Below are positions 12,765-62,166 of a DNA stretch of 64,000 nt, piece after piece. The notes under the pieces are model-generated. The model was not told the DNA's origin. It searched no databases and saw nothing but the letters and a program-made list of their open reading frames with translations. The DNA lies in the IMG/VR virus record IMGVR_UViG_3300032431_000004, positions 10,824-74,823 of that record; one strand, 5' to 3'. This DNA comes from a virus. Each line of letters opens with the position of its first letter. Positions within the stretch are counted from its first letter, which is position 1. The translations under genes and the position numbers were made by a program.

Positions 12765-13064
12765 AAAAGTAGGCAGTGTCATGTTGACTGTCATACTTTT
12801 GGCAACATACTCTAACCCATACTCAGTAAAGCTTAGACACCTGCCGTCGCACTGTCATTGGCATTAAGAGTTTTAGATTCTGAGATTAGGATTATCTCTA
12901 AGAAGATTAGATATTTAATTCAGTGAATTAATAACTCTGAATCCTCTCCTATTTTGAAATCAGAAAAATCAATGACAGTGCGACGGCAGGCATCTAAGCC
13001 ATATATACCAAGGCTTTAAGTGTGTTGCCAATTTGTTGACTGTCACGTAGACACTGCCTGTTTT
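12765..13064 (+). repeat. Palindromic dispersed element, copy 2 (full, ~300 bp)
   Basis: ~100-bp imperfect inverted arms around an AT-rich centre ttaattcagtgaattaa. Confidence 0.95.
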
Positions 13065-13094
13065 TTTGGGGATTCTAGCAGCTGAGACTACCCC

Positions 13095-13260
13095 TAAAAA
13101 GACTCAGGTATTTAATCCAATAGATTGAATACCTGAGTCTTCCCTTATTTTGAAATCGTAAAAGTCAATGACGCTGCGACGGGAGGTGTCTAACCCATAC
13201 TCAGCAATACTTTAACCCTGTTGCCAAAACAATGACAGTCACGTAGACACTGCCTGTTTT
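13095..13260 (+). repeat. Palindromic dispersed element, copy 3 (centre + right arm)
   Basis: Central hairpin aagactcaggtatttaatc/gattgaatacctgagtctt, then arm ending gacactgcctgtttt. Confidence 0.9.
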
Positions 13261-13281
13261 CCCAGAATGCCACCGGCTAAA

Positions 13282-13803
13282 TCAGCTATTCAAATAATCT
13301 GCCAAAAGCTGATTCAGTTCATCCCTGACGCCTGGGTACAGATCCCCATTAGCATCAACAGGCAGGAATGGCCGCGCCGGAACACTTGCCCTCGGTGCCC
13401 CAAAGTTATGAATAGCTCCTAGATCGTAGCGACCGACTTTTTGAGCAGTGCCCACTTCAGCAGCATTATTAGTGGCACGGGAGTACAGTGAATTGAAAAG
13501 CGCCCCAGACCATTGCAGCTTCAGTTTGCCGCCAGCTTTAGGCGCTCCCCTGGTGTTTGTACCTTTTCGCTTCTTACGGCTGCTGTAGCCCTCCTTATAG
13601 CGTCTGTACCGATCGCTTAATTCTGCCCACGGTTTTCCAGCGGCACCGGGAGCGCGTTGATTTTTGAATGCCCTGACAGCTTCAGCCTCAAGGTAATTCG
13701 CCCACGCTTTGTAAAGTGGCTGAGGTTTTCTGATTTTGGCGATCGTTTCCGATAGAATGCGATCGCCCGTGAGTTGGGATACATCAAATTCAAAGGTTGA
13801 CAT
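13282..13803 (-). CDS. Virion morphogenesis protein (Mu gpG / tail completion S family)
   Basis: W..LS..Y, L..SG.L..S, AIHNFG, VPARPFL. Confidence 0.85.
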   Translation of the reverse strand: MSTFEFDVSQLTGDRILSETIAKIRKPQPLYKAWANYLEAEAVRAFKNQRAPGAAGKPWAELSDRYRRYKEGYSSRKKRKGTNTRGAPKAGGKLKLQWSGALFNSLYSRATNNAAEVGTAQKVGRYDLGAIHNFGAPRASVPARPFLPVDANGDLYPGVRDELNQLLADYLNS

Positions 13804-13810
13804 GCTGACC

Positions 13811-14497
13811 TCAGAGTAGTGGTTCTGATTTTCCTTCCCAATCCCCACAGGTGCTACCGTCTACCCCGGTAGGGTGCATGGCACAGACAAGTTTGTTGCC
13901 GCCATAGGACTGCCCGTGGTAGTTGGTGCAGCCATCGCAGGCGATCGGCTTAGAAGGATTGAGGGACTGAACGGCTCGCGTCCACTCATCTCTACGTGCT
14001 TGGGGAAATCTTCTAGTACTAAACTCTTCTATTAAGTTCATCATTGATAGATCGTTTGATCTTAATTCGTCAATTGATAAAACTGTCAGGGAACGCCCAG
14101 CACTACGAGAGTCAGCTTCCCCGATACCTAGAGAAGCGCCAACGATGCCAACCCCATAGACATCGCTGCCCAGTGATTCCCCGGCTGCTAGTGCGATCGC
14201 CTGCTGCCTTGCGGCGTATTGACTAGACCTTCCAAAAAACCTATCTCTTGCCAGTTCAAACTCAGGGCGGTACTGCCTGTATATGCGAGGCACCAATCGG
14301 AACCCGTCTAGGAACCCGAACCACTCAACTGCCCCTGTGCAAAATAGATCAAAGAATTCGCGGTAGGAAGGCAGTTCAAGCCGATCGCACGAGATCTGTA
14401 TGTGACTGTCCACTCTCCTGTTATCCCTGACACCCTTCGATGAAAGCAGCTCAGCTACTATTTCCACAATCGCCATTTTTTCAACATCTAAGGACAT
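13811..14497 (-). CDS. Hypothetical protein with C-terminal cyanobacterial Cys-rich domain
   Basis: CDGCTNYHG...VCAMHP.G...CGDW; same motif in 20040..20618. Confidence 0.65.
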   Translation of the reverse strand: MSLDVEKMAIVEIVAELLSSKGVRDNRRVDSHIQISCDRLELPSYREFFDLFCTGAVEWFGFLDGFRLVPRIYRQYRPEFELARDRFFGRSSQYAARQQAIALAAGESLGSDVYGVGIVGASLGIGEADSRSAGRSLTVLSIDELRSNDLSMMNLIEEFSTRRFPQARRDEWTRAVQSLNPSKPIACDGCTNYHGQSYGGNKLVCAMHPTGVDGSTCGDWEGKSEPLL

Positions 14498-14543
14498 AGG
14501 ATTTCCTATAGGGTAGACTTCCCCCTATCCTACCAGCGCGCCA

Positions 14544-15293
14544 TCAGCTTGCAGGCAGGCTGCCATTGGCAAAACCAGCATTAACCCGATCGCGCTCTTG
14601 AGCTATCTGAGCGGCGATAGTAGGCGGCGATCGCGCAATGACTGCCTCAATAATCTCAGCCCGTTTTGCTGCTGATGTCGTTCCCGGCGCATAATCAAAC
14701 CCAGGATCAGGCTCGATCGACTGACCTGCTATCTGATCGCCCCGCTTCAGCACGCTCACTTCTAAGTTTTCAGATAAAAGCGATCGCACTGACAGGCTGA
14801 TATATCGGCATGAGCAGCCGTAGCCATTTGGCAATGACATGGGCACGTCTTGAGCCGGGAACACCGTACCGTCTAACGCTATGTGGGTAGGCCGTGGGTG
14901 CGTTGCGCCTCCGTGGATAAGCTGCCGATACGGTTGCAGCCGCACAACGTCAGGGTCAGTCTGCTGTTGCTCCCGGCCAGCCCCGTACGACATTTTTAGA
15001 TTGGTGTTGTAAATGACATTGGCTCTCCATGATTTGTTCCCAACCCAGTCGCCAGCTATCTTCTCAAACTCTGCGCGGAATTCGTCAGGCCGTTGCCCTA
15101 AAGCGATCGCCCTATCCAATGCTGCCCTGATGCCAGACAATAAATCGCCCTTGGCACCGGCAACAACAAAAAAGGCGTCATGCTGATCGTCCGTAATGTC
15201 TCGCCAGGTATCGGTGCCAAGGTTAATTTTGTCAAGAAGATAGGCGATCGCTTCAGGGTATGGCTTGGTAGCGTAGGCCGAATTACTCAGCAT
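14544..15293 (-). CDS. Minor head morphogenesis protein (Mu gpF/SPP1 gp7 family)
   Basis: AFFVVAG, IYNTN...Y.AGR, RPTH..LDG, PNGYGCSC, PDPGF. Confidence 0.9.
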   Translation of the reverse strand: MLSNSAYATKPYPEAIAYLLDKINLGTDTWRDITDDQHDAFFVVAGAKGDLLSGIRAALDRAIALGQRPDEFRAEFEKIAGDWVGNKSWRANVIYNTNLKMSYGAGREQQQTDPDVVRLQPYRQLIHGGATHPRPTHIALDGTVFPAQDVPMSLPNGYGCSCRYISLSVRSLLSENLEVSVLKRGDQIAGQSIEPDPGFDYAPGTTSAAKRAEIIEAVIARSPPTIAAQIAQERDRVNAGFANGSLPAS

Positions 15294-16944
15294 CTTCCTG
15301 TGCCTCAAAGATGCCGGCTAGCCGACTGCTAAACATTGCCTCAGCCATAATTTCGGTTAGCGCGTCGCCATCCAAGTCAGGGAACGCTTGGTCTAATGAG
15401 TCCCTGAATTCTCTCAGACTGCCCGCACTATCAAGGCGCGATCGCACTTCTTCTAGCATTCGCTCAAACTGTGGCTCCGCTTTTTGCCGTAGCCGTTCAG
15501 TAAACTTGTCGATGGTATTTGATGGTGCAGAAAATTGAGCTGTTGCCGGCGCGATTTCTGGGGCTGGCCTGTCAGGAGTAATGGCGATCGCGGTTTCTTC
15601 AGGCAACCCGAATACATTGATGAGTACCTGTATGGCATTATCCCTAGGCAACGTATTGTCAGTAAGGAAGTTCAGCAGCGATTGGGTTCCAATCTGGCCT
15701 AGCCCTTGGTAAAGCGGCGCTGGCTGGTCAACAATTGGGCTGCCATCAGCGGCGATCGCAGGGGCTTGGATATCGGTGAATCCGTCGCCATAAGTAGTTT
15801 TTACGTACTCTGCCTTCGGCCTGTATCCCCATGAAAGGATTTCAGTATCCCGTATGGCCTGCGCATTTAGGTCAGGACGATCGGTGATTTTTCTCCATAC
15901 TCTAGGCGGCGCTGCTGATGGATAATTTATCAGCGATAGATTCCTGATCCAACCACGGTTAGCGCTATGGCAAATTAAGTCAGAATCCGATTGGATAATA
16001 TCGGTTCTCACTTGGTGCAGCATCTCGCCTTTATCCACCCCGCCTGCACCTTCGAGCGTCATCGTTTGCCCTAAAATCAGCTTGGCGATCGCCCTATCCC
16101 AATAGCCTAAGAACGCCTGATAGTCGCCAGCGCCCGACCGTGTGGCTTCTAATAGTTCAATCATCATGCCTTCAGGAATAACGATTGCGCTGTCGGTATG
16201 ACATGCCCGTACAGCCTGCAAGAGCACTTGCTTTTCTGCGTCTGTGGCAGCTTTAGAGTGTTTCCCAATGGGCGTAGGCTGTCCAAACTTTTCAAGGTAT
16301 ACTGCCCAAAATTTGCCGCCGTTTTTCTTGAACCACACGCACCAGTAGATTACGGATGCCAGCCCCCTACCATAGGGATCGTCATCGTTATCCCCACCGG
16401 TGCGGAAGTACCACCATTTGCCTGGGTAAAGGGTTTCTACATCTTCACCTTCCCAGCTTTCCCAAGTGATCAAACGAAGGCGGCCATCTTTATCAAACCG
16501 GAAGCGGCGTTGTTTCCTGACTTTGATCTTGTCAGGGTAAACGAGATCGCCATCCTTTTCCAATAGAAGTTCAGATACCGCATAGCCATAGTGAACGGCA
16601 TACTGAATTTTTTTATTAACGTCATCCCATGCAATATGGTTCAGGACTTCTTTGAGCCAGTCAGCGGCAACATCATCTATATCGCTACTTCCCCCAGCTT
16701 CTACTTCCCACGGGTGCGCTATTAACGCATTCTGCCGCTGCTCATAGCCAGCTAGAACCTGATGGTCCTCTAGAAGCTTTTCATAAATTTCTAGACGGTA
16801 GCCATTCTCTGCAAGGACGCGATCGTCAGGAAAATCCAGTTCCCCGGCATAGCGGCGCGTCAGATCCTTGCTGCGTGGCGCTACCTCTACACCTAATGCT
16901 GGCGCTGCTGAGATTGATCCATTCGTAGTGGAGGAGGTGAACAT
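15283..16944 (-). CDS. Portal protein (Mu gp29/DUF935)
   Basis: YGYAVSE, PYGRGL, W..YLEKFG.P, IAKLILGQT. Confidence 0.92.
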   Translation of the reverse strand: MFTSSTTNGSISAAPALGVEVAPRSKDLTRRYAGELDFPDDRVLAENGYRLEIYEKLLEDHQVLAGYEQRQNALIAHPWEVEAGGSSDIDDVAADWLKEVLNHIAWDDVNKKIQYAVHYGYAVSELLLEKDGDLVYPDKIKVRKQRRFRFDKDGRLRLITWESWEGEDVETLYPGKWWYFRTGGDNDDDPYGRGLASVIYWCVWFKKNGGKFWAVYLEKFGQPTPIGKHSKAATDAEKQVLLQAVRACHTDSAIVIPEGMMIELLEATRSGAGDYQAFLGYWDRAIAKLILGQTMTLEGAGGVDKGEMLHQVRTDIIQSDSDLICHSANRGWIRNLSLINYPSAAPPRVWRKITDRPDLNAQAIRDTEILSWGYRPKAEYVKTTYGDGFTDIQAPAIAADGSPIVDQPAPLYQGLGQIGTQSLLNFLTDNTLPRDNAIQVLINVFGLPEETAIAITPDRPAPEIAPATAQFSAPSNTIDKFTERLRQKAEPQFERMLEEVRSRLDSAGSLREFRDSLDQAFPDLDGDALTEIMAEAMFSSRLAGIFEAQEDAE

Positions 16945-16987
16945 GGGCGATCGCGCTTAATTTGCCCCAAGAATAACCCAGATACAA

Positions 16988-17025
16988 AAAACCACTCCTT
17001 GCTTGCATGCGGTAGGAGTGGTTTT
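16988..17025. terminator. Rho-independent terminator
   Basis: aaaaccactcct / aggagtggtttt stem. Confidence 0.65.
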
Positions 17026-17100
17026 GAAATGTCGCAAACACAAAAAGGAGACCCTTGAAATCCCTTGCCAATAGTCTAGCGCAAGGGGAGGGGATTGCCT

Positions 17101-17364
17101 TTAGCAGGGCAGCGTTGCCTTAGCGCGGTTAGAGGCTGCGATCGCTACTGCGGCTACGAACCTGTGAGCAAAATATCTCTCGGTAATCCCTGGCAAATAA
17201 GCTGCCATCAAAAAAATATAGCTAGCGTCATACGGATTATCGTCTAGCCAGACTCGCAGTCTAAAGAGTGGTTCACCTTCGCGCTCTTCATAAATTACTC
17301 TGCAATCATCACCCCAATCAGGTTTGGAAGTTTTAATGTTGTGCAGAATCTTGTCAGCAATCAA
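17101..17364 (-). CDS. Hypothetical protein
   Basis: Coupled ORF. Confidence 0.5.
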   Translation of the reverse strand: MIADKILHNIKTSKPDWGDDCRVIYEEREGEPLFRLRVWLDDNPYDASYIFLMAAYLPGITERYFAHRFVAAVAIAASNRAKATLPC

Positions 17365-17714
17365 CTGGGCTTCAATCGTTTTGCCTCCTTTGGTTTTGCG
17401 ATCGCGTCAAGCCAAACAAGCCGTAAGTACGGTGCGCTTAGCGATTCTGGAATCTGTTTGTCAATTGAGTTAAACCATCTCTGGGCCAGTTCATCTGTAG
17501 AAACATATCGCCATTGGAGCGGCACGAAGTTCAAATGATTTGAATGGTTAAACTTCACCCACCCACGCATCCCGTGAATGCTGAAATCAATGAGGTAACG
17601 CGCCAATTCAGTATTGACACCGTGTCCTTTGACCTCAACCAAAGCCCCTGCGACAGGCAGCCGATCGGCAGTATTACGCCATTGCTCAACGTTCATTCTT
17701 TTCTCTCCGCTCAC
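17361..17714 (-). CDS. Hypothetical protein
   Basis: Coupled ORF. Confidence 0.55.
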   Translation of the reverse strand: MSGEKRMNVEQWRNTADRLPVAGALVEVKGHGVNTELARYLIDFSIHGMRGWVKFNHSNHLNFVPLQWRYVSTDELAQRWFNSIDKQIPESLSAPYLRLVWLDAIAKPKEAKRLKPS

Positions 17715-17886
17715 GCCTACTTTTCCTTTTCCGTTCTGCTGGCGTCATGGGCTGATCACCCACCATTGGCCGTCCCCTAGGGGAAGGGTTCTCATTGATT
17801 ACTCGATGGCAGGCAGGGCAGCGCCATCGCTGATACCCCGCCTTGTCTTTGCCCCAGCGATGACTGGGGCGATCGCAGTGTTCCAT
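17686..17886 (-). CDS. Zinc-ribbon protein (InsA-like) with basic MTPAER tail
   Basis: WGKDKAGYQRWRCPAC, GRP, PMTPAERKRKSR. Confidence 0.6.
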   Translation of the reverse strand: MEHCDRPSHRWGKDKAGYQRWRCPACHRVINENPSPRGRPMVGDQPMTPAERKRKSRRERREKNER

Positions 17887-17888
17887 TT

Positions 17889-18065
17889 TTACTCCGCTGA
17901 CATAGCGATCGCGCTTTTGATATCAGCATCGCTAAACCCCCGCTTCCGCCCTTCTGCAAATATTCTGGCTTGATATGCCGCATCGGTCTGGTCACTGAGG
18001 TCAACACCAGAGTCTAGGATTTTAGAGATAATTTCGTTCAGGATTTCAGTGGGATTAAGTTTCAT
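17889..18065 (-). CDS. Small hypothetical protein
   Basis: ATG 18065 (MKLNPTE); the longer track ORF starts inside the repeat element. Confidence 0.55.
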   Translation of the reverse strand: MKLNPTEILNEIISKILDSGVDLSDQTDAAYQARIFAEGRKRGFSDADIKSAIAMSAE

Positions 18066-18165
18066 CGTTTTTGCCTTTTGCTGCTTACTTTTATAGTATG
18101 TCACAAAAAGAGTGGGAATAGTGGGAAGTTTCATATTGACTGCGTGAAGATGTGCGATCGCGCTT

Positions 18166-18463
18166 AAAAGAGGCAGTGTCAACATGACTGTCATACTTTT
18201 GGCAACACACTCTAAGACTTACTGAGTATGGGCTAGACACCTGCCGTCGCACTGTCATTGGCATTAAGAGTTTTAGGTTTACTGCCAGAGTTCCCACTAA
18301 AAAGATTCAGGCATTTAATCTCAGCAGATTAAATGCCTGAATCTTCTCCTATTCTGAAATCACAAAAGTATGTGACGCTGTGACAGCAGCCTTCTAAGGT
18401 ATACGTATCAGGGCTTTAGGTATGTTGCCAAAACAATGACAGTCATGTTGACACAACGCTTTT
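18166..18463 (+). repeat. Palindromic dispersed element, copy 4 (full)
   Basis: Inverted arms; perfect 19-bp central hairpin aagattcaggcatttaatc/gattaaatgcctgaatctt. Confidence 0.95.
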
Positions 18464-18466
18464 ATC

Positions 18467-19294: not shown

Positions 19295-19313
19295 AGCTAA
19301 AACTTGGTAAGTG

Positions 19314-19331: not shown

Positions 19332-19355
19332 GAAGTATTTACTTTGAGGTTACTC

Positions 19356-19496: not shown

Positions 19497-19517
19497 ATAG
19501 TCAGGCTGACTGACATC

Positions 19518-19632
19518 ATTTCAAAATCACAAAAGTCTGTGACGCTGTGACAACACAACTCTAGTGTATACATACCAATACTTTAGGTGTGTTGCCAAAC
19601 TAATGACAGTCATGTTGACACTGCCTGTTTTT
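19518..19632 (+). repeat. Palindromic dispersed element, copy 5 (right arm only)
   Basis: aaatcacaaaagtctgtgacgctgtgac...gttgccaaactaatgacagtcatgttgacactgcctgttttt. Confidence 0.9.
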
Positions 19633-35437: not shown

Positions 35438-35739
35438 AAAAACAGGCAGTGTCTACATGACAGTCAACAAATTGGCAACACACTTAAAGCCTTGGTATAT
35501 ATAGGTTAGATGCCTGCCGTCGCACCGTCACAGACTTTTCTGATTTCAAAATAGAACAGGATTTAGAGTTATTAATTCAGTAAAATAAATATCTAATCCT
35601 CTTAGAGGTAATCCTTGGCAGCAAACCTAAAACTACTAGATGCCAGTGACGCTGCGACGGGAGGCATCAAGCCTGTGCTGAGTATGGGTTTAACCCTGTT
35701 GCCAAATCCATGACAGTCAACATGACACTGCCCCCTTTT
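35438..35739 (-). repeat. Palindromic dispersed element, copy 6 (full, inverted)
   Basis: Same arms; centre reversed (gatttcaaaatag...aaacctaaaactactaga). Confidence 0.95.
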
Positions 35740-36376: not shown

Positions 36377-37003
36377 ATGCTGAGTAGTCCTGAAAATATT
36401 CAAACGACTGAGGAATGGATCGCTCAACTCTCAGAGGCTACCGGGAAGAGCTTTGAGATAGTGGGAGATATTCTCTTAAGGACGATGCGGACGTTTTACA
36501 AAGAAATTGGAGAAACCTATTTACTAGCTGATCAGCTAGTTGCGGTGATCAGCTCAACCAATACCTCAATCTTAGGATTGGGTGAGTCCTTAGCTTTCGT
36601 AGGGCCGATTGCTGCCCTTATGAACCAGCCACTAGATGACGTTCTAATCCTGCTAGGTCTGCTGGGAGATGCTGGCATTGAGGGGAGTATGGCGGGCATA
36701 GGCTTGATGGCTGTCTTAAATCGACTTCAAGTTACGTCGGCAGCGGCAGAACCAGAATCCATTAAGAGAACTTTTGATATCGTCAGCGCTTCTGCCAAGA
36801 ATAGCGACGGATCAATGAGATCCGTTTTAGAAATACTTCCAGAGCTTCGGGGAAGCATTGGCAAGCTATGGCAAGCTGAGCAAGGCATTTTGATGGAGGC
36901 ATTGTTTGGGGTAGAAGGCGCACCAGTTTTTCAGGCATTGTTCAATACAACTCCAGAACATGTCGCGATCGTTACCAGTCGAGTCAAGAGCGCTGGCAGG
37001 TAG
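36377..37003 (+). CDS. Stand-alone paralog of the tape measure core domain
   Basis: SEATG..E.VGDI..RT.RTF, STNTS...LGESL, NQPLDD.LILLGLLGD, DGSM.SVLEILPE, ALFG match TMP 30163-30747. Confidence 0.85.
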   Translation: MLSSPENIQTTEEWIAQLSEATGKSFEIVGDILLRTMRTFYKEIGETYLLADQLVAVISSTNTSILGLGESLAFVGPIAALMNQPLDDVLILLGLLGDAGIEGSMAGIGLMAVLNRLQVTSAAAEPESIKRTFDIVSASAKNSDGSMRSVLEILPELRGSIGKLWQAEQGILMEALFGVEGAPVFQALFNTTPEHVAIVTSRVKSAGR

Positions 37004-37466: not shown

Positions 37467-37710
37467 ACCGATGGGTATCGAAAACACAAGCAAGCCGACA
37501 GGTGAAAACGATCGCATTTGGAGAGGCCACATCGTTAGCCTAGGCAAGGAATATCAGCGCTGTGAGTCTTCAGGCGCAAGGGATATTTGGTATTGGCGGT
37601 TCGTTTTAGACGTTGCCACTTGGGCACTTGACCAATGCAATAAGCGATTGAGCGCACCGGTACTCAGAACATGGCATTATCAAAAAGAATTGAAACGCGA
37701 TCGCACATGA
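37451..37710 (+). CDS. Hypothetical protein
   Basis: In-operon ORF, ATGA coupling downstream; start uncertain. Confidence 0.45.
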
Positions 37711-38246
37711 AATATTTTCTTGACACCGAATTTATTGAAGACGGCACCACTATTGACTTGATCAGCATTGGTCTGGTGTGTGAGGACGGGCGGGAATTCT
37801 ACGCCGAAAACTCTAGCGCCGACCTTTCAAAGGCTGGGGAATGGGTGGAAGCGAATGTGTTGCCGTTGCTTTGGTCTAGAAGCGCAGACAAGGAAAAAGC
37901 AAGCCTGTGGAGCCGTGATGGCGTGGCTGGCGGATTGCTGACCCACAAAGAGATAGGCTCGGCAATTCGGCTGTTCATACCGGAAGATGACAAGCCTGAG
38001 TTTTGGGCTTATTACGCAGACTATGACTGGGTAGCCTTTTGCCAGCTATTCGGAACAATGATGGATTTGCCAGATGGATTTCCTATGTACTGTCGCGATA
38101 TCAAGCAATGGTGCGACCAGCTTGGCAGCCCTGATCTGCCTAAGCAGGATGGGACAGAACACAATGCTCTTGAGGATGCCCAGTGGACATTAGAGGCTTG
38201 GGAATTCTTGAACGCAATTGACCTAACCCCTAATGTCACTCCTTAA
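37707..38246 (+). CDS. DEDDh 3'-5' exonuclease (DUF5051/Rv2179c-like)
   Basis: FLDTEF, DLISIGLV, YADYDWV, HNALEDA. Confidence 0.88.
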   Translation: MKYFLDTEFIEDGTTIDLISIGLVCEDGREFYAENSSADLSKAGEWVEANVLPLLWSRSADKEKASLWSRDGVAGGLLTHKEIGSAIRLFIPEDDKPEFWAYYADYDWVAFCQLFGTMMDLPDGFPMYCRDIKQWCDQLGSPDLPKQDGTEHNALEDAQWTLEAWEFLNAIDLTPNVTP

Positions 38247-44094: not shown

Positions 44095-45471
44095 TTAGAC
44101 GTGCCCGACTAGCACTGCATTGACACCTGTAAGCGCTTCCCACCTTTCCAGGATCACGGTGCAATAGAGGTCGCTCAGCTCAAAGCCGTAGACGGTGCGA
44201 TCGCCTTCCATCTGTTGAGCTGCGATTAAGCTCATGCCGCTGCCTAGGAATGGGTCAAAGATTAGATCGTCGGGCTTGCCATATTTCTCAAAGCACCATT
44301 CAGCAAGCGCGATCGGCTTTTGGGTTGGGTGAACTCTTTTTTGTCCATGCTCTGAAGCCTTTAAGCAGCCATTCCACATGTGACGAAAGATGCGTACAGA
44401 CGTGGGCTGGTTTGTCCATGCTAATTCAGCATCGGCAAAGTCCCCAGAGTTTTCTTTGTCCCAAATTAGCCAGCAACTAGAGTCTGGCAGTGCGCTTGAA
44501 AAGTGATTAGCTCCCCACCAAAACTGGTTAGGCATTGAGCGAAGGAGGTTGAAGGCGGCGATCGCGGTTTTGGTTGAATCGTCACCAATGACAGCTGGAC
44601 GAGGGATGCTTTGGATCGGCTTCTTCGAGAGAGAAGAAGCCGATCCAAAGGGCTTTGCTCTGTCCTTCATTGGGTCAAACTTCATTCCGTACGGAGGATC
44701 AGCCCACACCATCCCCACCGCCCGATCGCCCAGCAACTTCTTAACATTCCCCTCATCAGTCGAATCACCGCAGCAGATCCGGTGCCGCCCCAATTGCCAG
44801 ATCTCACCCAACTTTACGCGACTGGCGATCGCGCCTTCGTCTGCTGCATCTAGCAGGTCTGCGATCGCCTCCTCATCCTCTTCCTGTGGGATGCCTTCCC
44901 CCTCTGCCTCTAACTCTTCATACCTCAGCAGGGCATCTAAGTAATCGCCATCAAAACCAATCGGCAAAGAATCCTCATCAGCCAGCCCTTCTAATTGCTT
45001 AGAGAAGCCAGAGTCAAACATCTTGGCGATATCGTGGGCGCTGAAATCGCTACCCGCCATGGTCAGAATGTTGTGAGAAAAGCCAAACGCTTCAGCTTGC
45101 TTCTCTGACAATGCATCAACTCCAAACTTCACAGGTACAACCCATTCGCCATCAGCCTTGAGTGTGCCGATCCCTTTGGGTGGATCTTCACCCTGCTGTC
45201 TCATCAACGCTAGTCGGAATAGGAGAGCCTTAGTTCGTCCGTTACCGTAGACAAACCCACCTTCACCGCCATTTAGGTTGCTATCCCACTTAGCACAATC
45301 GGCATACCCATAGGACGCGATTGCTTCATCCAACATCTGAAGGTCATGCAACTTTGCATTATCCTTCCAAAGCTGCAAGTCGAGATCGAACGCTGGCAAG
45401 GGCACGTAGCGGATGTGTAGAACATCGCCATCAACGGCTGAGTGGTTAACTGAAGATTCTAGTATCGACAT
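44095..45471 (-). CDS. N6A/N4C DNA methyltransferase (beta class) with ParB-like N-terminus
   Basis: LGRHRICCGDST, DPPY, HPTQKP, DPFLGSG; NAK.H and GNGR in N-terminus. Confidence 0.9.
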   Translation of the reverse strand: MSILESSVNHSAVDGDVLHIRYVPLPAFDLDLQLWKDNAKLHDLQMLDEAIASYGYADCAKWDSNLNGGEGGFVYGNGRTKALLFRLALMRQQGEDPPKGIGTLKADGEWVVPVKFGVDALSEKQAEAFGFSHNILTMAGSDFSAHDIAKMFDSGFSKQLEGLADEDSLPIGFDGDYLDALLRYEELEAEGEGIPQEEDEEAIADLLDAADEGAIASRVKLGEIWQLGRHRICCGDSTDEGNVKKLLGDRAVGMVWADPPYGMKFDPMKDRAKPFGSASSLSKKPIQSIPRPAVIGDDSTKTAIAAFNLLRSMPNQFWWGANHFSSALPDSSCWLIWDKENSGDFADAELAWTNQPTSVRIFRHMWNGCLKASEHGQKRVHPTQKPIALAEWCFEKYGKPDDLIFDPFLGSGMSLIAAQQMEGDRTVYGFELSDLYCTVILERWEALTGVNAVLVGHV

Positions 45472-46730: not shown

Positions 46731-47028
46731 AAACAGGCAGTGTCTACGTGACTGACATGCTTTTGGCAACACACTTAAAGCCTTGGTATATATGGACTAG
46801 ACACCTGCCGTCGCACTGTCATTGGTTTTTCTGATTTCAAAATAGGAGAGGATTCAGACTTATTAATTCACTGAATTAAATATTCAGATCTCTTAAGGGT
46901 GATCCTAGGCAGCAAACCTAAAACTACTAGATGCCAATGACGGTGCGACGACAGGTGTCTAACGCATACTCAGTACAGGTTTGAGTATGTTGCCAAAAGT
47001 ATGTCAGTCAACATGACACTGCACTAAT
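46729..47028 (-). repeat. Palindromic dispersed element, copy 7 (full, inverted)
   Basis: Begins within the endolysin stop codon; same arms and centre. Confidence 0.95.
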
Positions 47029-55805: not shown

Positions 55806-55813
55806 CTTGCTGC

Positions 55814-55999
55814 CTACTGTTGCTCAACTTGCGGATACGGATTTGAAAAGAACGTTGGGATTACGGTAGTGGCGACGGTGCCAATTATGAAAAGCGCGAT
55901 CGCCATTACCGCTAGCGGATTCCTAGGCTGAGGCTGCGTCTGCTGTATCAGTCTCTCCGAAAGAAGCAGACGCAGCTGCAAACTGTTCCGACCAATCAA
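55814..55999 (-). CDS. Small membrane protein
   Basis: Single TM; overlaps upstream gene. Confidence 0.4.
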   Translation of the reverse strand: MIGRNSLQLRLLLSERLIQQTQPQPRNPLAVMAIALFIIGTVATTVIPTFFSNPYPQVEQQ

Positions 56000-56465: not shown

Positions 56466-56946
56466 GACACTTTTCCTGTTTGTTAATTGATTTGATTGCT
56501 CGACTGACCCATTTAGCCACCTGACTTGCTGTGTAATCATGCAGGCGGCTGTACCTGACCATCCCAACTTCTCTGCCCCATTCGTAGAGCGTAGGCTCTG
56601 CGATCTTCCGTCCCGTCAAACTCCTGATTGTTTCTGTCAGCTCGTGCCCTTTACATGGGGCGATGAGGGTTTCAGGCGGAAGACCTGCCATCGTTACGAG
56701 CCATTCATTCCAGTCCCTCGTTTTTCGCTCTATATAAATGTCTAGGAGCGTCAGCCTCCGAAGCGGCTGTTCTTTTTTCAGAAGAGCAATCGCAAATAGG
56801 TTTGCCACCTGCTCTTCTGTTAACCACCGCTCATGCTTTGGCACCTCAGCTATCTGCCGCCATGCGTACCATGTACGGGGTGAGAAGTCCCGTGTATATA
56901 GCTCATAGCACTTCTCCCTTACTTCCTTGTCTCTGTTTAGTTGCAT
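56404..56946 (-). CDS. DNA-binding protein with two MerR/excisionase-like HTH modules
   Basis: FSPRTWYAW..IA and IAEPTLYEWG; YT..QV. Confidence 0.6.
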   Translation of the reverse strand: MQLNRDKEVREKCYELYTRDFSPRTWYAWRQIAEVPKHERWLTEEQVANLFAIALLKKEQPLRRLTLLDIYIERKTRDWNEWLVTMAGLPPETLIAPCKGHELTETIRSLTGRKIAEPTLYEWGREVGMVRYSRLHDYTASQVAKWVSRAIKSINKQEKCHVNPRINEASGKQGRQPASV

Positions 56947-57555
56947 CCTTCCGACTTGCCTTCCCCCTTGTTATGTACGATTTCGTAACGACTGCCTATG
57001 AACAAACATTAGCACTAAAGCTTTCGGCGCGCTACCCCTAAACGACAAAAGTCGGCAAAGTTGCTGACTCCATAAGGACTTTATGCGCAGCAATATCAAC
57101 CTCAAACGAATACAGGAAAAGCGATCACGCTATTTTATGGGCACTTCCGAAAAGTTTTTAGTGTTTAGAACATTCGGAAAGTTTGCAGAGTTTTGAAAGA
57201 ACGAAATCTTTAGAATTGTCTGAAGGTTTCGAACGTTCAGTAATTGCTGAACACAATGAATAGCAATTGAAAGCGCGATCTGCCTTTTTTGGTGACGGTA
57301 CCGCGCTGAGCTCTCAGGAATTATGGGACGCCCATAATCGGATCGTTATATTGGCGCTGGATTATACGCATTTTGTCAGCAGGGTAGGCGCGATCGCGCT
57401 TAGACGGGATTGGTGGCGCGGTTCTGGCGTCGGCAATGTAAAGAAGGCTTTAAGAATGCTGCTTAATTGGCATTTTTGTTTTGGGGCGATTTCGTACGTT
57501 TTGACGGTGCATGCCGATAAGCTTTATAGACAAGTTGTGATTAGGCGCAAAACCA

Positions 57556-57921
57556 GTGGCAAACGGCGAAAGGCGGAAAGAGCTAAGAGTGAACCTGACG
57601 CTCCCCAGCACATATTTTCAGCATCTACGGCGGTGGGCGTCAGAAGTAAGAGAGCAACCCACTAGCCTTGCTGCCAGACTGACGATGGAGGGAATAGACT
57701 CCGCGCTAAAGGAAGGGCGCATACCCGTGGGCATTTCTCCATATCAATCGCTGGCTCATCTAGTGCTAGAAAACTGGGATTTACTTATAGAAGAGAGTGA
57801 AGTAGATCCCGGCCGCCTCAGCTCAATTAGGGACGGCGCAACCCCAGACGAAATGGATCTATTAAAAATTGCCTGCACACTGAAGCTATCGATCAAGGAA
57901 GTGCGATCGCTTTTGCGGTAG
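57556..57921 (+). CDS. Putative repressor (RHH-like N-terminus + XRE-like HTH)
   Basis: RVNLTLP...SLAA; RLSSI.DG..P...LLKIA..L; divergent from 56946. Confidence 0.6.
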   Translation: MANGERRKELRVNLTLPSTYFQHLRRWASEVREQPTSLAARLTMEGIDSALKEGRIPVGISPYQSLAHLVLENWDLLIEESEVDPGRLSSIRDGATPDEMDLLKIACTLKLSIKEVRSLLR

Positions 57922-57960
57922 GAAGTGCTGGCTGCCGTGACAGCAAAAGTAGAGCGACCT

Positions 57961-57998
57961 AAAAGCAGGCATACCTTTTGGATATGCCTGCTTTTTTT
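57961..57998 (+). terminator. Repeated terminator, copy A
   Basis: gcaggcata/tatgcctgc + T7 + ggctaaat. Confidence 0.85.
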
Positions 57999-58012
57999 GG
58001 CTAAATGCTGCT

Positions 58013-58313
58013 AAAAAGGGGCCGTGTCAACGTGACTGACATACTTCTGGCAACACCCTCTAGCTCTTACTGAGTATGGGTTAGATGCCTGTCGTCGCAG
58101 CGTCACCGGCATTAAGGGTTTTAGATCCTGAAACTAGGATTGCCCTTAAGAGATCTGAATATTTAATTCAGTGAATTAATAACTCTAAATCCTGTTCTAT
58201 TTTGAAATCACAAAAGTCTGTGACGGTGGGACAACACACTCCTAACCATTGGTATATATAGCTTAGAGGGTGTTGCCAAAACTATGGCAGTCACGTTGAC
58301 ACGGCGCTATTTT
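58013..58313 (+). repeat. Palindromic dispersed element, copy 8 (full)
   Basis: Inverted arms and conserved centre. Confidence 0.95.
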
Positions 58314-58356
58314 GGAAGGTGCTATAGCGCTTTTCAGGAATACTTTGGACAATCGC

Positions 58357-58385
58357 TTGACTATCCCGATACGCTGCACTATATT
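58357..58385 (+). promoter_or_regulatory. Sigma70 promoter (duplicated at 60348)
   Basis: TTGACT-17-TATATT followed by gggagataagaaacga. Confidence 0.8.
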
Positions 58386-58435
58386 GGGAGATAAGAAACG
58401 AACACCAACACAGCTCAGTAAAAACGGAAAACTTC

Positions 58436-59095
58436 ATGACTACTAAATTCGCTTTTGCTTACACCGACTCTGGACTACTCCCTAGATTTCGTGACAATCA
58501 CTTTCATTATCATCATTTCTTTCCATCAAAAGGAGAATACGCAATCATTGAACCATTAATCTCGGGAAGCGAGATGTCAGGAGGTTTTGATCTTGCTGTT
58601 AAATTCTTAGCTACCAGGGATGACCGACTGCATGAAGAAGCCAGCGAAAATGATGGCGAATTACCCTTTGGCTGCTGTTCATCCTATGTAGAACCAGAGC
58701 TGCTGTGCATCTATGAAACCACCTCGGGCACGGTTCTATGTGTGGACGTACATGGCGATCGTCAAATCTCGATACCAATTGTTAGAGCTGGAGGTTTCCA
58801 CCACAAAATCATCTTGCTAGTGCTAGCCGGGATTACAGCAGCTCAGCTGAGCCGATACGAAAACCTTCATACGGTCGGTGCAGATGAATTTGAGTCAGCA
58901 CATAAAGAGCGCAAAGCTCTCTATGATTCAATCCTCTGCCAGCACGGGTACGAGCCTTATGAGTCTTGGGAGCAACACGTTCAAGCTGAATGCGATCGCA
59001 AAGATCGCCTCGCTTCTGGAGTTGGCGAATGGTCGATTGATGATACCGATTATGAGGATTACGAGGGCGCAGATTTACAAGATGACGGCAATTGA
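58436..59095 (+). CDS. Hypothetical acidic protein (cassette 1)
   Basis: Downstream of promoter. Confidence 0.65.
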   Translation: MTTKFAFAYTDSGLLPRFRDNHFHYHHFFPSKGEYAIIEPLISGSEMSGGFDLAVKFLATRDDRLHEEASENDGELPFGCCSSYVEPELLCIYETTSGTVLCVDVHGDRQISIPIVRAGGFHHKIILLVLAGITAAQLSRYENLHTVGADEFESAHKERKALYDSILCQHGYEPYESWEQHVQAECDRKDRLASGVGEWSIDDTDYEDYEGADLQDDGN

Positions 59096-59100
59096 TTCTC

Positions 59101-59427
59101 ATGCCTAGAAGAAATCCTCAAGAGGGCGATCGCGTTCGCCCTCACGACAAGACCAGTAATCTGCGCGGAATAATCACGATAGCCTCACCGCAGCCGGGAG
59201 GCGAAGTGACAATCAGAGTTGGCGTAGATGGCAGCCTAACCATCCAAGGCACATGGAAGGAGCTAAGTAAGTCATGGAGCATCACAAAGCCCATTAACAC
59301 CCAAAGGAGGGTTCTGACGATGCCCCTGGAGATAGATAAAGAATTGGTGATGATTGGGGATGAGCAAGGGCTATCGCCTGAGGCAGTCGCCATTGAGCTG
59401 CTGAGGGATGCGATCGCATCTAGGTAA
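59101..59427 (+). CDS. Protein with C-terminal RHH/Arc-like domain; paralog of 61471..61797
   Basis: MPR.NP, GTWKEL, NTQRRVLT.P..ID.EL...EQG.SPE.VAIELLR. Confidence 0.75.
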   Translation: MPRRNPQEGDRVRPHDKTSNLRGIITIASPQPGGEVTIRVGVDGSLTIQGTWKELSKSWSITKPINTQRRVLTMPLEIDKELVMIGDEQGLSPEAVAIELLRDAIASR

Positions 59428-59502
59428 AAAGTAGATCAGCCTGATAGCATTTCTAGCCAGTCATTTTCGTAGAAAACTAAATCAAAAAGAGTAGAGAATC
59501 TA

Positions 59503-59916
59503 ATGCCAAATTACCTAGTGTTTCGCTCCCCTACTGGAATTCGTGCTGTTGTACTGGGCGCACCCGGTACAGGAGTGCCAAAAGACCAAGTTATGAGAGA
59601 AGATGAACGATTTGCGGTGGTCATTGATGACGTTCCTAGTCCAGAGGCGGCGATTTGGAAGGCTGCGCTGGAATACCACGAAGATGCGATCGCCGGAATG
59701 ATGAAGGTATTGGTTTTTTATCTGGACGAAATCGACTGGGATCGTGATAGCACTTTCAACGCAGAAGTCGTAGACGAAGTTTTTAAGAGCCTCCATCGAC
59801 TCCACAAAGAAGGGCTTTCCTGCACTCAGGAGCTTGAAGATCTGACCCCGCATTGGATCGTCCCTGGAAAAGAGGTTGAGCCAGAAGAGAGTCTTGAGCA
59901 GCTAACCCTGATCTGA
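59503..59916 (+). CDS. Hypothetical protein flanked by 22-bp direct repeat
   Basis: aaaagtagaYcaRcctgatagc at 59427-59448 and 59936-59957. Confidence 0.65.
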   Translation: MPNYLVFRSPTGIRAVVLGAPGTGVPKDQVMREDERFAVVIDDVPSPEAAIWKAALEYHEDAIAGMMKVLVFYLDEIDWDRDSTFNAEVVDEVFKSLHRLHKEGLSCTQELEDLTPHWIVPGKEVEPEESLEQLTLI

Positions 59917-59955
59917 TCGGGTTGCACTTAAGTCTAAAAGTAGACCAACCTGATA

Positions 59956-59990
59956 GCGGGCATACCCAAAAAGTATGCCCGCCTTTTTTT
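59956..59990 (+). terminator. Repeated terminator, copy B
   Basis: gcgggcatac/gtatgcccgc + T7. Confidence 0.85.
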
Positions 59991-60005
59991 GGCTAAATGC
60001 CACTG

Positions 60006-60305
60006 AAACAGCGCAGTGTCTACGTGACTGACATACTTTTGGCAACACACTCAAACCCTTACTTAGCACGGCTTAGATGCCTCCCGTCGCAGCGTCACTG
60101 ACATTAAGGGTTTTAGATTCTGAGATTAGGATTAGTCCTAAGAGATCTGAATATTTAATTCAGTGAATCAATAACTCTAAATCCTGTTCTATTTTGAGAT
60201 CGTAAAAGTCAATGACGGTGGGACAACACACCTCTAAGCATTGATATATATAGTTCAGAGGGTGTTGCCAAAAGTATGTCAGTCAACATGACACTGCCTT
60301 GCTTT
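60006..60305 (+). repeat. Palindromic dispersed element, copy 9 (full)
   Basis: Inverted arms and conserved centre. Confidence 0.95.
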
Positions 60306-60347
60306 GGAGGGTGCATGGCACTTCTCAGAAATACTTTAGCTAATCGC

Positions 60348-60376
60348 TTGATTATCCCGATACACTGTACTATATT
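60348..60376 (+). promoter_or_regulatory. Sigma70 promoter (paralog of 58357)
   Basis: TTGATT-17-TATATT followed by gggagataagaaacga. Confidence 0.8.
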
Positions 60377-60425
60377 GGGAGATAAGAAACGAGTCCAGCA
60401 CGCCAAACACAAAAGAGAAATTAAA

Positions 60426-61220
60426 ATGTTTACCTTGAATGTTGCCCCTCAATTGACTCATTCCTTTGGCTGGCAAGAGCTAGAAAAGATTGAAGCTTTC
60501 AAGGCTTCTGTCATGTCGCTATCTGGCGACGTGCGGATGCCAAGCGATATCTGCATTGATATCACTTCGGAAGAGAGCGAGAAATTCAACACTACTATTT
60601 ACGAAATGGTTGCAAAGGTAAGGGGCGAGGATGTCTATAGTCAAAACTTTAGGCAGACCACGGTTGACGACTTCCGGCTGTCAAACTACTCTTTCCGTGA
60701 ACTCTTGGGAAAGGTTATATCAACTCAAGTCATCGACGGACTCCTGCCCCTTGAATGGGTGGAATTGCTTGAGGTAAGTGGCTTGCCTTGCCCTAGGAAT
60801 ATAAGCCATAAGCTACTCCCAGGAGTTAAAGCCTGGTCTGATGGTGCGATCCAAAAAGCAACCTGGAGTGGAGAGTGTGAAGATATATTCTTGACTAAAG
60901 CTGGCAGTCAAAACTGGAAAGTCTGCTTCGTTAACGGGGATACGTTCTACCTCCCACCTAGCGGGTGGACGGCAAAGGTTGAGAGCCTAGAAAAGGTTGA
61001 AGCTAGGCTGGCAGCGGTAGAGTCTCAGAGAGCAGATGAGTCGCTAGCTGCGGCACAGAGATACATTGGCTGGGCGGTGTCAGCAGTCGTTGGGAGCGAG
61101 ATCACCCTTACGTCTCCTACTGGGGAAACGGTAGCAATCAAAGCGTCCCACGAAGTCTGGGACTGTGGAAATAAGAGTCAATCATGGCTGGTCATCGGTG
61201 GCGATTGCTTCTTGAGTTAA
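60426..61220 (+). CDS. Hypothetical protein (cassette 2)
   Basis: ATG 60426 after promoter; track start lies inside the repeat. Confidence 0.65.
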   Translation: MFTLNVAPQLTHSFGWQELEKIEAFKASVMSLSGDVRMPSDICIDITSEESEKFNTTIYEMVAKVRGEDVYSQNFRQTTVDDFRLSNYSFRELLGKVISTQVIDGLLPLEWVELLEVSGLPCPRNISHKLLPGVKAWSDGAIQKATWSGECEDIFLTKAGSQNWKVCFVNGDTFYLPPSGWTAKVESLEKVEARLAAVESQRADESLAAAQRYIGWAVSAVVGSEITLTSPTGETVAIKASHEVWDCGNKSQSWLVIGGDCFLS

Positions 61221-61274
61221 TCTTGCGACCCTGACACGATCGCATTCCAGCCAACCCAGGAGAGAAAACAGAAA

Positions 61275-61478
61275 ATGAGTCAGTTCACCCCCGCTCAAAA
61301 CGATTCTGCTAAAGCCTACCAAGCCTACGTTGATGGCGGATGGGCTAAGAACGAGTTTTATAGCTATGCCTCAAACAACGATCCCTATGGATGGAAAGAT
61401 TCTTGGATAGGAGAATCCTTTTCTCAGTGGCTAGCTACTGAGCTAGTGGGAAGAGAGCACAAGAGCAATTATGCCTAG
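61275..61478 (+). CDS. Small hypothetical protein
   Basis: RBS AGGAG. Confidence 0.6.
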   Translation: MSQFTPAQNDSAKAYQAYVDGGWAKNEFYSYASNNDPYGWKDSWIGESFSQWLATELVGREHKSNYA

Positions 61479-61797
61479 AGGAAATCCCAAACCAGGCGGC
61501 TCTGTTCGCCCTCGCGACACGACCAGCCAGCTCCGAGGATACATCGATCCAACCTCGTCCATCGATCAGGGGCGCGTTATCATCAGGGACGCAGTAGACG
61601 GTGCCCTGATCGGCTGTGGCACATGGAAGGAGCTGCGCAAGGTCTGGCTCCTCATGAAATGCGTTAACACCCAAAGGCGGGTTCTGACAGTGCCACGGGA
61701 TATCGACAGCGAATTGATAAGGCTGGGGGTGGAGCAAGGGCGATCGCCTGAGTCTGTAGCCATTGAGCTGCTGAGAGGGGCGATCGCGCTTAAGTAA
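61471..61797 (+). CDS. Protein with C-terminal RHH/Arc-like domain; paralog of 59101..59427
   Basis: High similarity at protein and DNA level. Confidence 0.75.
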   Translation: MPRGNPKPGGSVRPRDTTSQLRGYIDPTSSIDQGRVIIRDAVDGALIGCGTWKELRKVWLLMKCVNTQRRVLTVPRDIDSELIRLGVEQGRSPESVAIELLRGAIALK

Positions 61798-61816
61798 AAA
61801 GTAGATCAGCCTGATA

Positions 61817-61850
61817 GCGGGCATACCCAAAAAGTATGCCCGCCTTTTTT
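61817..61850 (+). terminator. Repeated terminator, copy C
   Basis: Stem identical to copy B. Confidence 0.85.
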
Positions 61851-61864
61851 GGCTAAATACTTTC

Positions 61865-62166
61865 AAAACAGGCAGTGTCATGTTGACTGACATACTTTTG
61901 GCAGCATACTCAAACCCTTACTGGGTATGGATTAGGTGCCTCCCGTCGCAGCGTCACTGACATCTAGTAGTTTTAGATCCTGAGATTAAGATTAGCCCTA
62001 AGAGATCTGAATATTTAATTCAGTGAATTAATAACCCTGAATCCTGTTCTATTTTGAAATCAGGAAAATCAATGACAGTGCGACGGCAGGCATCTAAGCC
62101 ATATATACCAACGCTTTAACCCTGTTGCCAAAAGTATGTCAGTCACGTTGACACGGCGCTATTTTT
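61865..62166 (+). repeat. Palindromic dispersed element, copy 10 (full)
   Basis: Inverted arms and conserved centre. Confidence 0.95.

Follow-up and report, generated by a model that had tools for sequence, protein, structure and literature searches.

Rare in-place inversions of quasi-palindromic boxes in a dispersed phage repeat, probably caused by template switching and spread by gene conversion

How does a repeated DNA element come to carry the same short segment in opposite orientations in different copies, and in combinations that change from one copy to the next? This question is raised by a 64,000-nt stretch (hereafter the window; positions 10,824–74,823 of the 74.8-kb virus record IMGVR_UViG_3300032431_000004) of a cyanophage-like genome that contains about ten copies of a non-coding palindromic repeat of about 300 bp. 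The 17 arms found in the window correspond to seven full and three partial copies of this inverted-arm element. Each element has two arms of about 115 bp, with a conserved core of about 96 nt that holds the boxes, i.e. short imperfect palindromes (quasi-palindromes) lying between invariant blocks (GGCAGTGTC, GACTGWCAT, TTTGGCAACA, CTGCCGTCGCA and GTCA). The motif GTC-N5-GAC is found 21 times in the window, compared to 9.4 ± 3.1 times in shuffled sequences, and 17 of these 21 occurrences lie at arm ends. The outer site, CAGTGTC-N5-GACTG, resembles a pair of inverted half-sites flanking a variable spacer; the inner end of each arm has a related site in inverted orientation. Arms are named below after their copy and their physical side (e.g. 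c2L). Note that copies 6 and 7 are oppositely oriented, so that their physical left arms are of the R type; this has no effect on the copies cited in the earlier note. The arms of the window and those of related metagenome contigs together provided a set of 79 complete arms.

The virus belongs to a freshwater or microbial-mat cyanophage-like siphovirus group and is not of the T4 type: a tape-measure protein, a Mu-type portal and F and G head genes are present. The element is a phage-specific repeat located at the junctions between gene modules, and its positions are conserved among relatives. Two related phages (L149 and L148) have different or fewer cassettes in the interval flanked by their orthologs of copies 8 and 10, and a third one (L012) has extra cassettes beside copy 4. 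A promoter and terminator scan placed a terminator just upstream and a promoter-like site just downstream of copies 8–10, both outside the arms, and gave weak matches only inside the arms. The HTH proteins adjoining copies 4, 6 and 10 were considered as a paralogous family binding the element and discarded, these three proteins displaying no mutual similarity. The whole window has no Rfam match at the gathering threshold, and neither the element nor the tape-measure gene has a match among the INPHARED phages. A scan of 185,579 prokaryote species genomes with two element patterns gave no real match (none for the first pattern; 16 single matches in unrelated taxa for the second, about the number expected by chance). 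The element family itself, which marks variable cassette junctions and has no match in Rfam, INPHARED or cellular genomes, is the more interesting object and a separate finding.

Every allele quoted in the earlier note lies where that note placed it, and the middle box is flipped in place as it proposed: the A box in c2L relative to c4L and c8L, and the B box in c8R relative to c2R and c10R. The A box is forward in c4L (arm 18172–18267, + strand; box 18211–18237) and c8L (58020–58115, +) and flipped in c2L (12772–12867, +), where the quasi-palindrome spans residues 12811–12837 (+). The c2L box is identical to that of c4L at 24 of 27 positions as a reverse complement, against 19 of 27 in the forward sense (23 and 20 of 27, respectively, for c8L), and each of its five asymmetric positions has been exchanged for precisely the complement of its mirror-image base. 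A second flipped A box is found in c6R, an L-type arm (35637–35732, −; box within 35659–35696). The box is forward in c7R, also an L-type arm (46928–47023, −), and in c10L (61871–61966, +), as a CTGGG variant; the solo L-type arm c1L (12373–12468, +) has a forward A-family box. Two arms are composite: c9L (60012–60107, +), whose outer end is R-like, has an A-family box with a variant centre, and c3R (13159–13254, −), the R-type arm of a partial copy 3 that duplicates the centre and R arm of copy 2, is a module chimera with an A-family box on an R-type arm.

The B box is flipped in c8R (58211–58306, −; box within 58233–58270), where it is bounded by the stems CTCTAAGC and (G)GTTAG, and in c9R (60203–60298, −; box within 60225–60262). 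It is forward in c2R (12963–13058, −), in c10R (62063–62158, −) and in the R-type left arms c6L (35445–35540, +) and c7L (46736–46831, +), and B-family boxes are forward in c4R (18363–18458, −) and in the solo R arm c5R (19530–19625, −). The boxes of c8R and c9R match those of c2R and c10R at 13–14 of 15 positions as reverse complements, compared to 9 of 15 forward; a B-box 11-mer is exact as a reverse complement and differs at 9 of 11 positions when read forward. The B box is the clearest case of a flip and the A box a well-supported one; the evidence is weaker for the GTC-N5-GAC core (TGT/ACA) and for the adjoining 13-nt block. In the 13-nt block, the 13-mer CATGACAGTCAAC of c6L (35456–35468, +) is the in-place reverse complement of GTTGACTGTCATG of the ATGTT-type arms, and c2R contains the inverted-type block GAC-AGTCAAC (about 13035–13047, −). 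A simple CATG-mediated inversion was rejected as the origin of this block on account of a register misfit. A 3-nt hypervariable spacer was likewise discarded as a further flip site, two reverse-complement pairs among 12 alleles, with about one expected by chance, not being significant.

Within the N5 core, the window displays ATGTT in c1L (12382–12386), c2L (12781–12785), c6R, c7R, c10L and c9R, where it is L-like; AACAT in c4L (18181–18185), c4R and c5R; TACGT in c2R, c3R, c7L and c9L; AACGT in c8L, c8R and c10R; and TACAT in c6L. In arm orientation, ATGTT of c2L and AACAT of c4L occupy the same position and are reverse complements, as claimed earlier. Among the 79 arms, ATGTY is found in 28 of 41 L arms and WACRT in 32 of 38 R arms. 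Since ATGTT and WACRT are mutually reverse-complementary, the two ends of an element usually agree in the direction of the core when read on one strand, and on the top strand the N5 polarity is indeed equal at both ends in most elements. Most N5 'flips' are better read as the replacement of the L-arm allele (ATGTT) by one of the R-arm alleles (WACRT) or the reverse, as exemplified by c4L, whose N5 is identical to that of its partner c4R. The reverse-complement relation involves the three central bases only (TGT/ACA) and could, taken alone, be due to chance (we estimate p at roughly 0.03–0.15). The rare allele ACGGT is confined to one element (L188), both arms of which carry it; it is exactly the half-flip product by which GTCAC-G-GTGAC becomes a perfect palindrome, and may have arisen by template switching.

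Over the 79 arms, we found 17 exact in-place reverse-complement allele pairs, 11–13-mers included; the control transformations yielded five pairs (reverse only) and eight pairs (complement only), none longer than 8 nt. The inverted segments measure 3–27 nt and are all bounded by short inverted repeats of 3–8 bp (TCTAA/TTAGA, CTCTAAGC/GCTTAGAG, GTCA/TGAC). Two features expected of micro-inversions are thus present, namely in-place reverse-complement alleles and short bounding inverted repeats; a third, a stable single-strand hairpin, is not displayed by the boxes. Local box hairpins are weak, with a ΔG of about 0 to −3.3 kcal/mol and z-scores of −0.5 to +0.9, strong folding being a property of the whole element only, and a covariation analysis of the box-2 stem gave moderate pairing with no clear compensatory pattern. 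Several metagenomes, assembled independently, contain the same flipped states, and c4L, c2R and c3R are reproduced with zero differences by Logan contigs of the probable source run; the flips are therefore not assembly artefacts, an objection that the earlier note had raised against itself. The best explanation for joints such as 12489→12888 is that other copies cross-map there.

The alleles of neighbouring boxes re-assort across copies, in agreement with the earlier note: 28 module combinations are present, and 66–75% of site pairs are incompatible. A PHI-like recombination test was significant (p<0.0005); with the boxes masked, it gave p=0.0025 for the arms of the window and p=0.08 over all 79 arms. 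Homoplasy is strong. On a backbone tree built from the non-box columns of the arms, arm type (L/R) requires one change, box-2 orientation three, the 13-nt block three, the A/B family four and the N5 class 13. The frequent micro-inversion suggested earlier is thus overstated, as three changes are enough for box-2 orientation, and the flipped B boxes form one lineage with common flanks. Gene conversion can mimic recurrence of flip events on a tree.

The comparison of orthologous loci shows that states vary among close relatives. At the c2L locus, the A box is flipped in three phages and forward in two; the A box of c6R is flipped, and its four orthologous arms are not fully flipped. The N5 core of c4L (AACAT) is ATGTT in its L012 ortholog, and the c1L locus has four different N5 alleles in four phages. 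Partial A-box states occur in L160 and L178 as well as in c9L, which makes a stepwise point-mutation route conceivable for this box. Pairing the L arm of an element with its own R arm gives no greater similarity than pairing it with a shuffled one (p 0.1–0.35), so within-element conversion is not pervasive; homogenisation within elements is rejected as a general process and kept for single cases only, such as L188 and copy 4.

Altogether, we consider it probable that the flips began as rare inversions, produced at quasi-palindromes by short-range template switching, that phage recombination and short-tract gene conversion then spread them, and that they do not constitute a switch. The in-place inversions would be small in number: at least three in the middle box (the A box of the c2L locus, the A box of c6R and one B-box lineage), at least one in the 13-nt block and probably one old inversion in the N5 core. 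Their most likely cause is short-range template switching during replication, in which the new strand would briefly use the complementary strand as its template across the interval delimited by the short inverted repeats of the box, a mechanism deduced from end products alone. Short-tract gene conversion and homologous recombination then carried the inverted alleles, along with ordinary substitutions, from arm to arm, from copy to copy and from one related phage to another, as the mosaic pattern shows, thereby producing the combinatorial picture of the boxes. Judged from assembled contigs, the flips would be fixed mutational footprints, tolerated because each box remains a palindrome. The weak local hairpins leave stable hairpin extrusion unsupported, so that the switch would rest on 3–8 bp of microhomology; as template switching needs microhomology only, they count against the word 'hairpin' and not against the mechanism. 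Template switching and gene conversion among arms, two of the routes offered in the earlier note, fit the exact in-place reverse complements, their bounding inverted repeats, the homoplasy, the PHI-like signal and the ACGGT allele of L188.

If box polarity had a function, the asymmetric cores would be strand-specific signals (loop sequences in transcripts, the half-site order of a DNA-binding protein or promoter-like hexamers), and flips would be selected to keep their direction relative to transcription. In our reading of the alignments, the B box, followed along the strand that carries the flanking genes, is TTGGTATATAT-like in seven of the eight R-type arms of the window, including those of copies 8 and 9, which combine an anti-oriented element with a flipped B box. 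The N5 polarity shared by both ends of most elements points the same way, as does one ATGTT L arm that scores as TTGACT-16-CATACT in the promoter scan. However, all flipped B boxes belong to one lineage with the same flanks and are effectively a single observation, copy 10 and its orthologs break the B-box strand rule, and copies 8–10 lack a consistent N5 polarity when read on the sense strand; we therefore regard a functional polarity as unlikely. The more specific idea that the B box is an extended −10 promoter was dropped, as it contains no hexamer with A2 and T6 and is absent from the output of the promoter scan.

A few point mutations, or one-sided changes perfecting a palindrome, might also mimic a flip in the N5 core and the A box, which are about 70% self-complementary. 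The A-box 27-mers are identical to their own reverse complement at 18–20 of 27 positions, one 11-mer pair differs at only three positions when read forward, the N5 flip amounts to three bases, and the intermediate states of L160, L178 and c9L are those expected of such a route. It is nevertheless rather improbable that no inversion took place in these two boxes, given that c2L swaps all five asymmetric positions to the mirror complement and that the control transformations gave no comparable matches. The B box, which differs at 9 of 11 positions forward and is yet an exact reverse complement, cannot stem from this kind of mimicry.

With still less confidence, one may imagine that N5 and the B box are direction-setting spacers of protein-binding or recombination sites, like lox/FRT spacers or the strand-choice bases of attC, box polarity and allele identity deciding which element ends pair or fire; if true, this phage group would possess a combinatorial address code governing the exchange of cassettes or their transcription. 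A programmed site-specific inversion or crossover, by an invertase or shufflon-type switch or at lox/FRT/attC-like sites with an asymmetric spacer, is very unlikely, even though the outer site looks like a pair of half-sites with an inverted relative at the inner arm end and the elements bound cassettes whose content varies between relatives. Each flip corresponds to few events on the tree, and segments of 3–27 nt with flanking repeats of 3–8 bp are too small, known invertase substrates being far larger. Moreover, 50 ORFs of the 74.8-kb record, the small ORFs being scanned in part only, yielded no recombinase domain of the tyrosine or serine type and no integrase or transposase domain. This absence and the shortness of the flanking repeats leave site-specific crossover, the remaining route of the earlier note, unsupported.

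That the boxes are independent miniature palindromic mobile units inserted in the arms in either orientation is highly improbable: nested small dispersed repeats have been described in cyanobacterial genomes, but here the box matches lie inside arms (5 of 6 for A and 5 of 5 for B, which we read as arm-only occurrence), box position and arm length are constant, and neither the element nor any of its parts was found in the 185,579 species genomes. Finally, an artefact in assembling or aligning a repeat-rich metagenomic contig is scarcely credible, as the flips, besides recurring in independent assemblies, are defined against the invariant blocks that flank a box over a span of about 40 nt, i.e. 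less than a sequencing read, despite the fact that the elements interrupt the Logan contigs of the source run, indicating that these repeats are hard to assemble.

Among known systems, the flip/flop of the terminal hairpins in parvoviruses such as AAV also involves two orientations of an asymmetric segment inside a palindrome. It arises at each replication round by hairpin transfer at the genome ends and stays at 1:1, whereas here the sites are internal, events are few and states look fixed. The Hin/Gin, FimBE and shufflon switches have a dedicated recombinase encoded nearby, of which none was found among the 50 ORFs here. MITEs were rejected: no target-site duplication is visible at the arm ends, no transposase was found in the ORFs scanned, positions are conserved among relatives, and cellular genomes contain no real match. 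Integron attC sites were rejected as well, given that no IntI integrase was found, the size of the element (about 300 bp versus 57–141 bp) and the fact that no R''/R' core sites (RYYYAAC/GTTRRRY) were seen by eye in the arm consensus. A parallel is provided by the palindrome- or hairpin-associated small inversions of plastid non-coding DNA, e.g. the trnH-psbA spacer (PMC2903610; surveys in PMC6824564 and PMC12371153), in which a short segment is likewise inverted in place between short inverted repeats, varies among close relatives and can mislead trees by resembling a cluster of substitutions. In contrast to these, the boxes studied here lie in a multi-copy phage repeat whose alleles move between copies by conversion, several are nested or adjacent in each arm, and their local stems are weaker. 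Quasipalindrome template-switch mutation in E. coli (PMC7202029) and the short-range template switching that creates inverted copies in comparative genomics (PMC7954356, PMC8794818) similarly alter several bases in one event, giving a reverse-complement copy or a more perfect palindrome, a pattern fitted by the full flips and by ACGGT; compared to the E. coli case, the mechanism is deduced here from its end products. The PeSL (promoter-early stem-loop) cassettes of T4-type phages (Arbiol et al. 2010, PMC2839356) are also dispersed intergenic repeats at cassette boundaries, and there as here close relatives differ in the genes that lie between adjacent copies; the terminator upstream and the promoter-like site downstream of copies 8–10, both outside the arms, are a further similarity. 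Unlike PeSLs, the present elements belong to a virus of another type and consist of about 300 bp with two 115-bp arms in place of a simple promoter and hairpin.

The phenomenon thus looks like a known DNA-copying error combined with recombination, and not like a genetic switch. What looks like a cluster of substitutions in an intergenic repeat of a phage can be one inversion spread by conversion, which is relevant to the alignment, dating and tree-building of such repeats and guards against reading flips as switches. The 79 aligned arms, each with several flippable boxes, constitute a natural data set for the relative rates of both processes, and a cyanophage-like siphovirus group is added to the phages whose dispersed palindromic boundary elements evolve by template switching and concerted exchange.

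Repeat finding and motif scans identify 17 arms in the window, belonging to seven full elements (copies 2, 4, 6, 7, 8, 9 and 10) and three partial ones (c1L, c3R and c5R, where the number gives the copy and L or R the left or right physical arm). The conserved core of each arm spans about 96 nt, and the arm reaches about 115 nt up to the AT-rich, asymmetric centre of the element, which lies inward of the arms. Variable boxes and invariant blocks alternate along the arm, from outside to inside: (i) an A-run and GGCAGT; (ii) GTC-N5-GAC, with N5 being five variable nucleotides; (iii) TGWCAT, a variable 3-nt spacer and TTTGGCAACA; (iv) the middle box, a quasi-palindrome (TCTAA ... TTAGA); and (v) CCTGCCGTCGCA..GTCAYTG. 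The true type of an arm is set by the asymmetric centre (L-type, CATTAAGAGTTTTAG...; R-type, TTTTCTGATTTCAAAATAG...), and judged in this way copies 6 and 7 are inverted. As a single strand, the whole element, which has no match in Rfam, has a very stable fold (DNA, -69 kcal/mol, z -11; RNA, -130 kcal/mol, z -12.8). The outer arm ends of all elements read AAAA(C)AGGCAGTG (e.g. window 12765-12780 and 13050-13069), so that a full element would form a giant hairpin whose GC-rich base leads into a T-run on either strand, the arrangement of a putative intrinsic terminator that acts in both directions and has a very large loop. At the inner end the terminal motif recurs in diverged and inverted form (CAGTGAC-GCTGC-GAC versus CAGTGTC-N5-GAC; e.g. 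window 12447-12463, 35642-35658, 60086-60102 and 61945-61961), and a third occurrence, GGCAG(G)TGTC, adjoins the middle box; the arms thus look like a single short site repeated in either orientation, in the manner of iterons or operators.

Contigs that carry the element comprise one from IMG/VR and 45 from metagenomes, the latter mostly 1-3 kb long. The element is absent from the INPHARED phages, and across 185,579 prokaryote species, each represented by one genome, a 22-base pattern matched nowhere and a looser pattern gave only 16 single matches, which is chance level. An arm HMM returned 140 matches, corresponding to 96 unique arms, 79 of them complete. Since the element-bearing contigs come from relatives that share synteny and, within genes, 82-94% DNA identity, many of these arms are orthologous to those of the window.

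We searched the 79 complete arms for alleles that occupy identical alignment columns and are exact reverse complements of one another, requiring three or more differences and differing ends. The search yielded 17 such pairs, among them 11-mers plus one 13-mer from the middle box and a 13-mer pair adjoining the core (GTTGACTGTCATG versus CATGACAGTCAAC), whereas 5 pairs emerged under plain reversal and 8 under plain complementation, none longer than 8 nt. The in-place flips described in the earlier note are therefore real. Middle boxes fall into family A (centre TTACTGAGTAT), mostly in L arms, and family B (centre TTGGTATATAT), mostly in R arms, and each family occurs in both orientations: A is flipped in c2L, c6R and three metagenome arms, and B in c8R, c9R and eight others. 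The B-box flip is unambiguous, the best 15-nt window matching at 14/15 positions as the reverse complement versus 9/15 forward. The A box is itself about 70% self-complementary; in c2L all five asymmetric positions are swapped (24/27 versus 19/27). N5 alone is weak evidence of flipping, as only its central three bases change (A-TGT-T versus A-ACA-T).

N5 is ATGTY in 28/41 L arms and WACRT in 32/38 R arms, so that on one element strand the core usually has the same direction at both ends, and most N5 'flips' appear to be exchanges of the two allele classes between arm types. For instance, c4L carries AACAT like its partner c4R, whereas the orthologous L arm of L012, a related phage contig, has ATGTT; the c1L locus displays four N5 alleles in four phages. 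Altogether, the 79 arms make 28 module combinations, 66-75% of the informative site pairs are incompatible, and a PHI-like permutation test gives p<0.0005 on all columns (with the boxes masked, p=0.0025 among the window's arms and p=0.08 over the full set of arms), bearing out the earlier proposal that no single tree accounts for the arms. Pairing the two arms of one element gives no greater similarity than pairing L and R arms at random. Flipping does not explain the 3 nt between TGWCAT and TTTGGCAAC (arm offset 26-28 in every arm; e.g. window 12798-12800, 18198-18200 and 19597-19599), which are hypervariable: at least 12 alleles occur (ACT, GGA, AGA, GCT, TGT, AGT, CAG, TAG, GGT, ACC, TGA and TGG), several bases differ even between orthologous arms with identical flanks, and the c5R locus has four alleles across five phages.

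On a maximum-likelihood tree of the non-box columns, the minimum number of changes is 1 for L/R arm type, 3 for box-2 (middle-box) orientation, 3 for the 13-nt block, 4 for the A/B family and 13 for N5 class; the orientation count does not support the 'frequent' flipping suggested earlier. All flipped B arms are identical in sequence before and after the box and have a downstream flank in common, and hence represent one lineage copied along with its cassette. Flipped A arose at two loci in different backgrounds, and both loci have an unflipped box in related phages.

Several explanations were weighed (ALTERNATIVES). That box polarity is functional is a weak lead: the B box runs along the flanking genes in 7/8 R-type arms, including two anti-oriented copies with a flipped box, but both belong to a single lineage, and copy 10 is an exception. 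Neither a programmed invertase nor site-specific crossover, the latter envisaged in the earlier note, is likely, as no recombinase, integrase or transposase domain was found among 50 ORFs, the repeats on either side measure 3-8 bp, the inverted stretches span 3-27 nt and the events are few. Independently mobile mini-palindromes are excluded by the boxes never occurring outside arms, and assembly error by the recurrence of flipped states across independent assemblies.

Template switching and conversion, also put forward in the earlier note, fit the data: short inverted repeats bound each flipped segment, and many site pairs are incompatible. A quasi-palindrome that is inverted or perfected by changes at several bases bears the signature of replication template switching (PMC7202029, PMC7954356, PMC8794818). 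With alleles ACGGT and ACTGT the core becomes a perfect palindrome, GTCAC-N-GTGAC. ACGGT is confined to both arms of one element (L188, a metagenome ortholog of copy 4), whose core is a perfect 11-bp palindrome, and would be the exact product expected if the first half of a WACGT core were copied from the complementary strand; judged from its alleles, L188 seems a clear single case of arm-to-arm copying with palindrome 'perfecting'. A strict hairpin picture is disfavoured: single boxes fold no more stably than shuffled sequence, the two arms of one element resemble each other no more than random L/R pairs do, and a simple inverted-repeat model does not account for how the 13-nt block arose. 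We therefore propose instead that rare, microhomology-guided template switches would generate the flips, and that frequent short-tract conversion and phage-phage recombination would then spread the alleles. The flips are a mutational pattern of an already known kind, the same outcome being well known in plastid spacers as small inversions (PMC2903610).

The record is a single 74.8-kb virus, of which the window covers bases 10824-74823, with about 50% G+C and HIP1-like GCGATCGC words in the window. It encodes a Mu-type portal, Mu F-like and Mu G-like head proteins, a large terminase, a 1537-aa ORF of tape-measure size, minor tail and fibre proteins, two UvrD-like helicases, a DUF3987 primase-like protein and four DNA methyltransferases, including D12 Dam-like, C5 cytosine and N6/N4 genes (L191:9916-10821, window 1739-3001 and 44095-45471). 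A stand-alone ORF 3' of copy 6 (window 36377-37003) matches the tape-measure-like PhageMin_Tail domain, and a Rv2179c-like 3'-5' exoribonuclease domain protein lies amid the tail genes (window 37671-38246). Elements sit at module and cassette junctions. Around copies 8-10 (window 57800-63200), where each unit has an intrinsic terminator upstream and a promoter-like site downstream, the cassettes between the orthologs of copies 8 and 10 are different or fewer in relatives (L149 and L148), and in L012 additional promoter-gene cassettes adjoin copy 4. The element is not a member of the PeSL family of T4-type phages, which works similarly at cassette junctions (PMC2839356), but from its positions it looks like a cassette-boundary or recombination linker.
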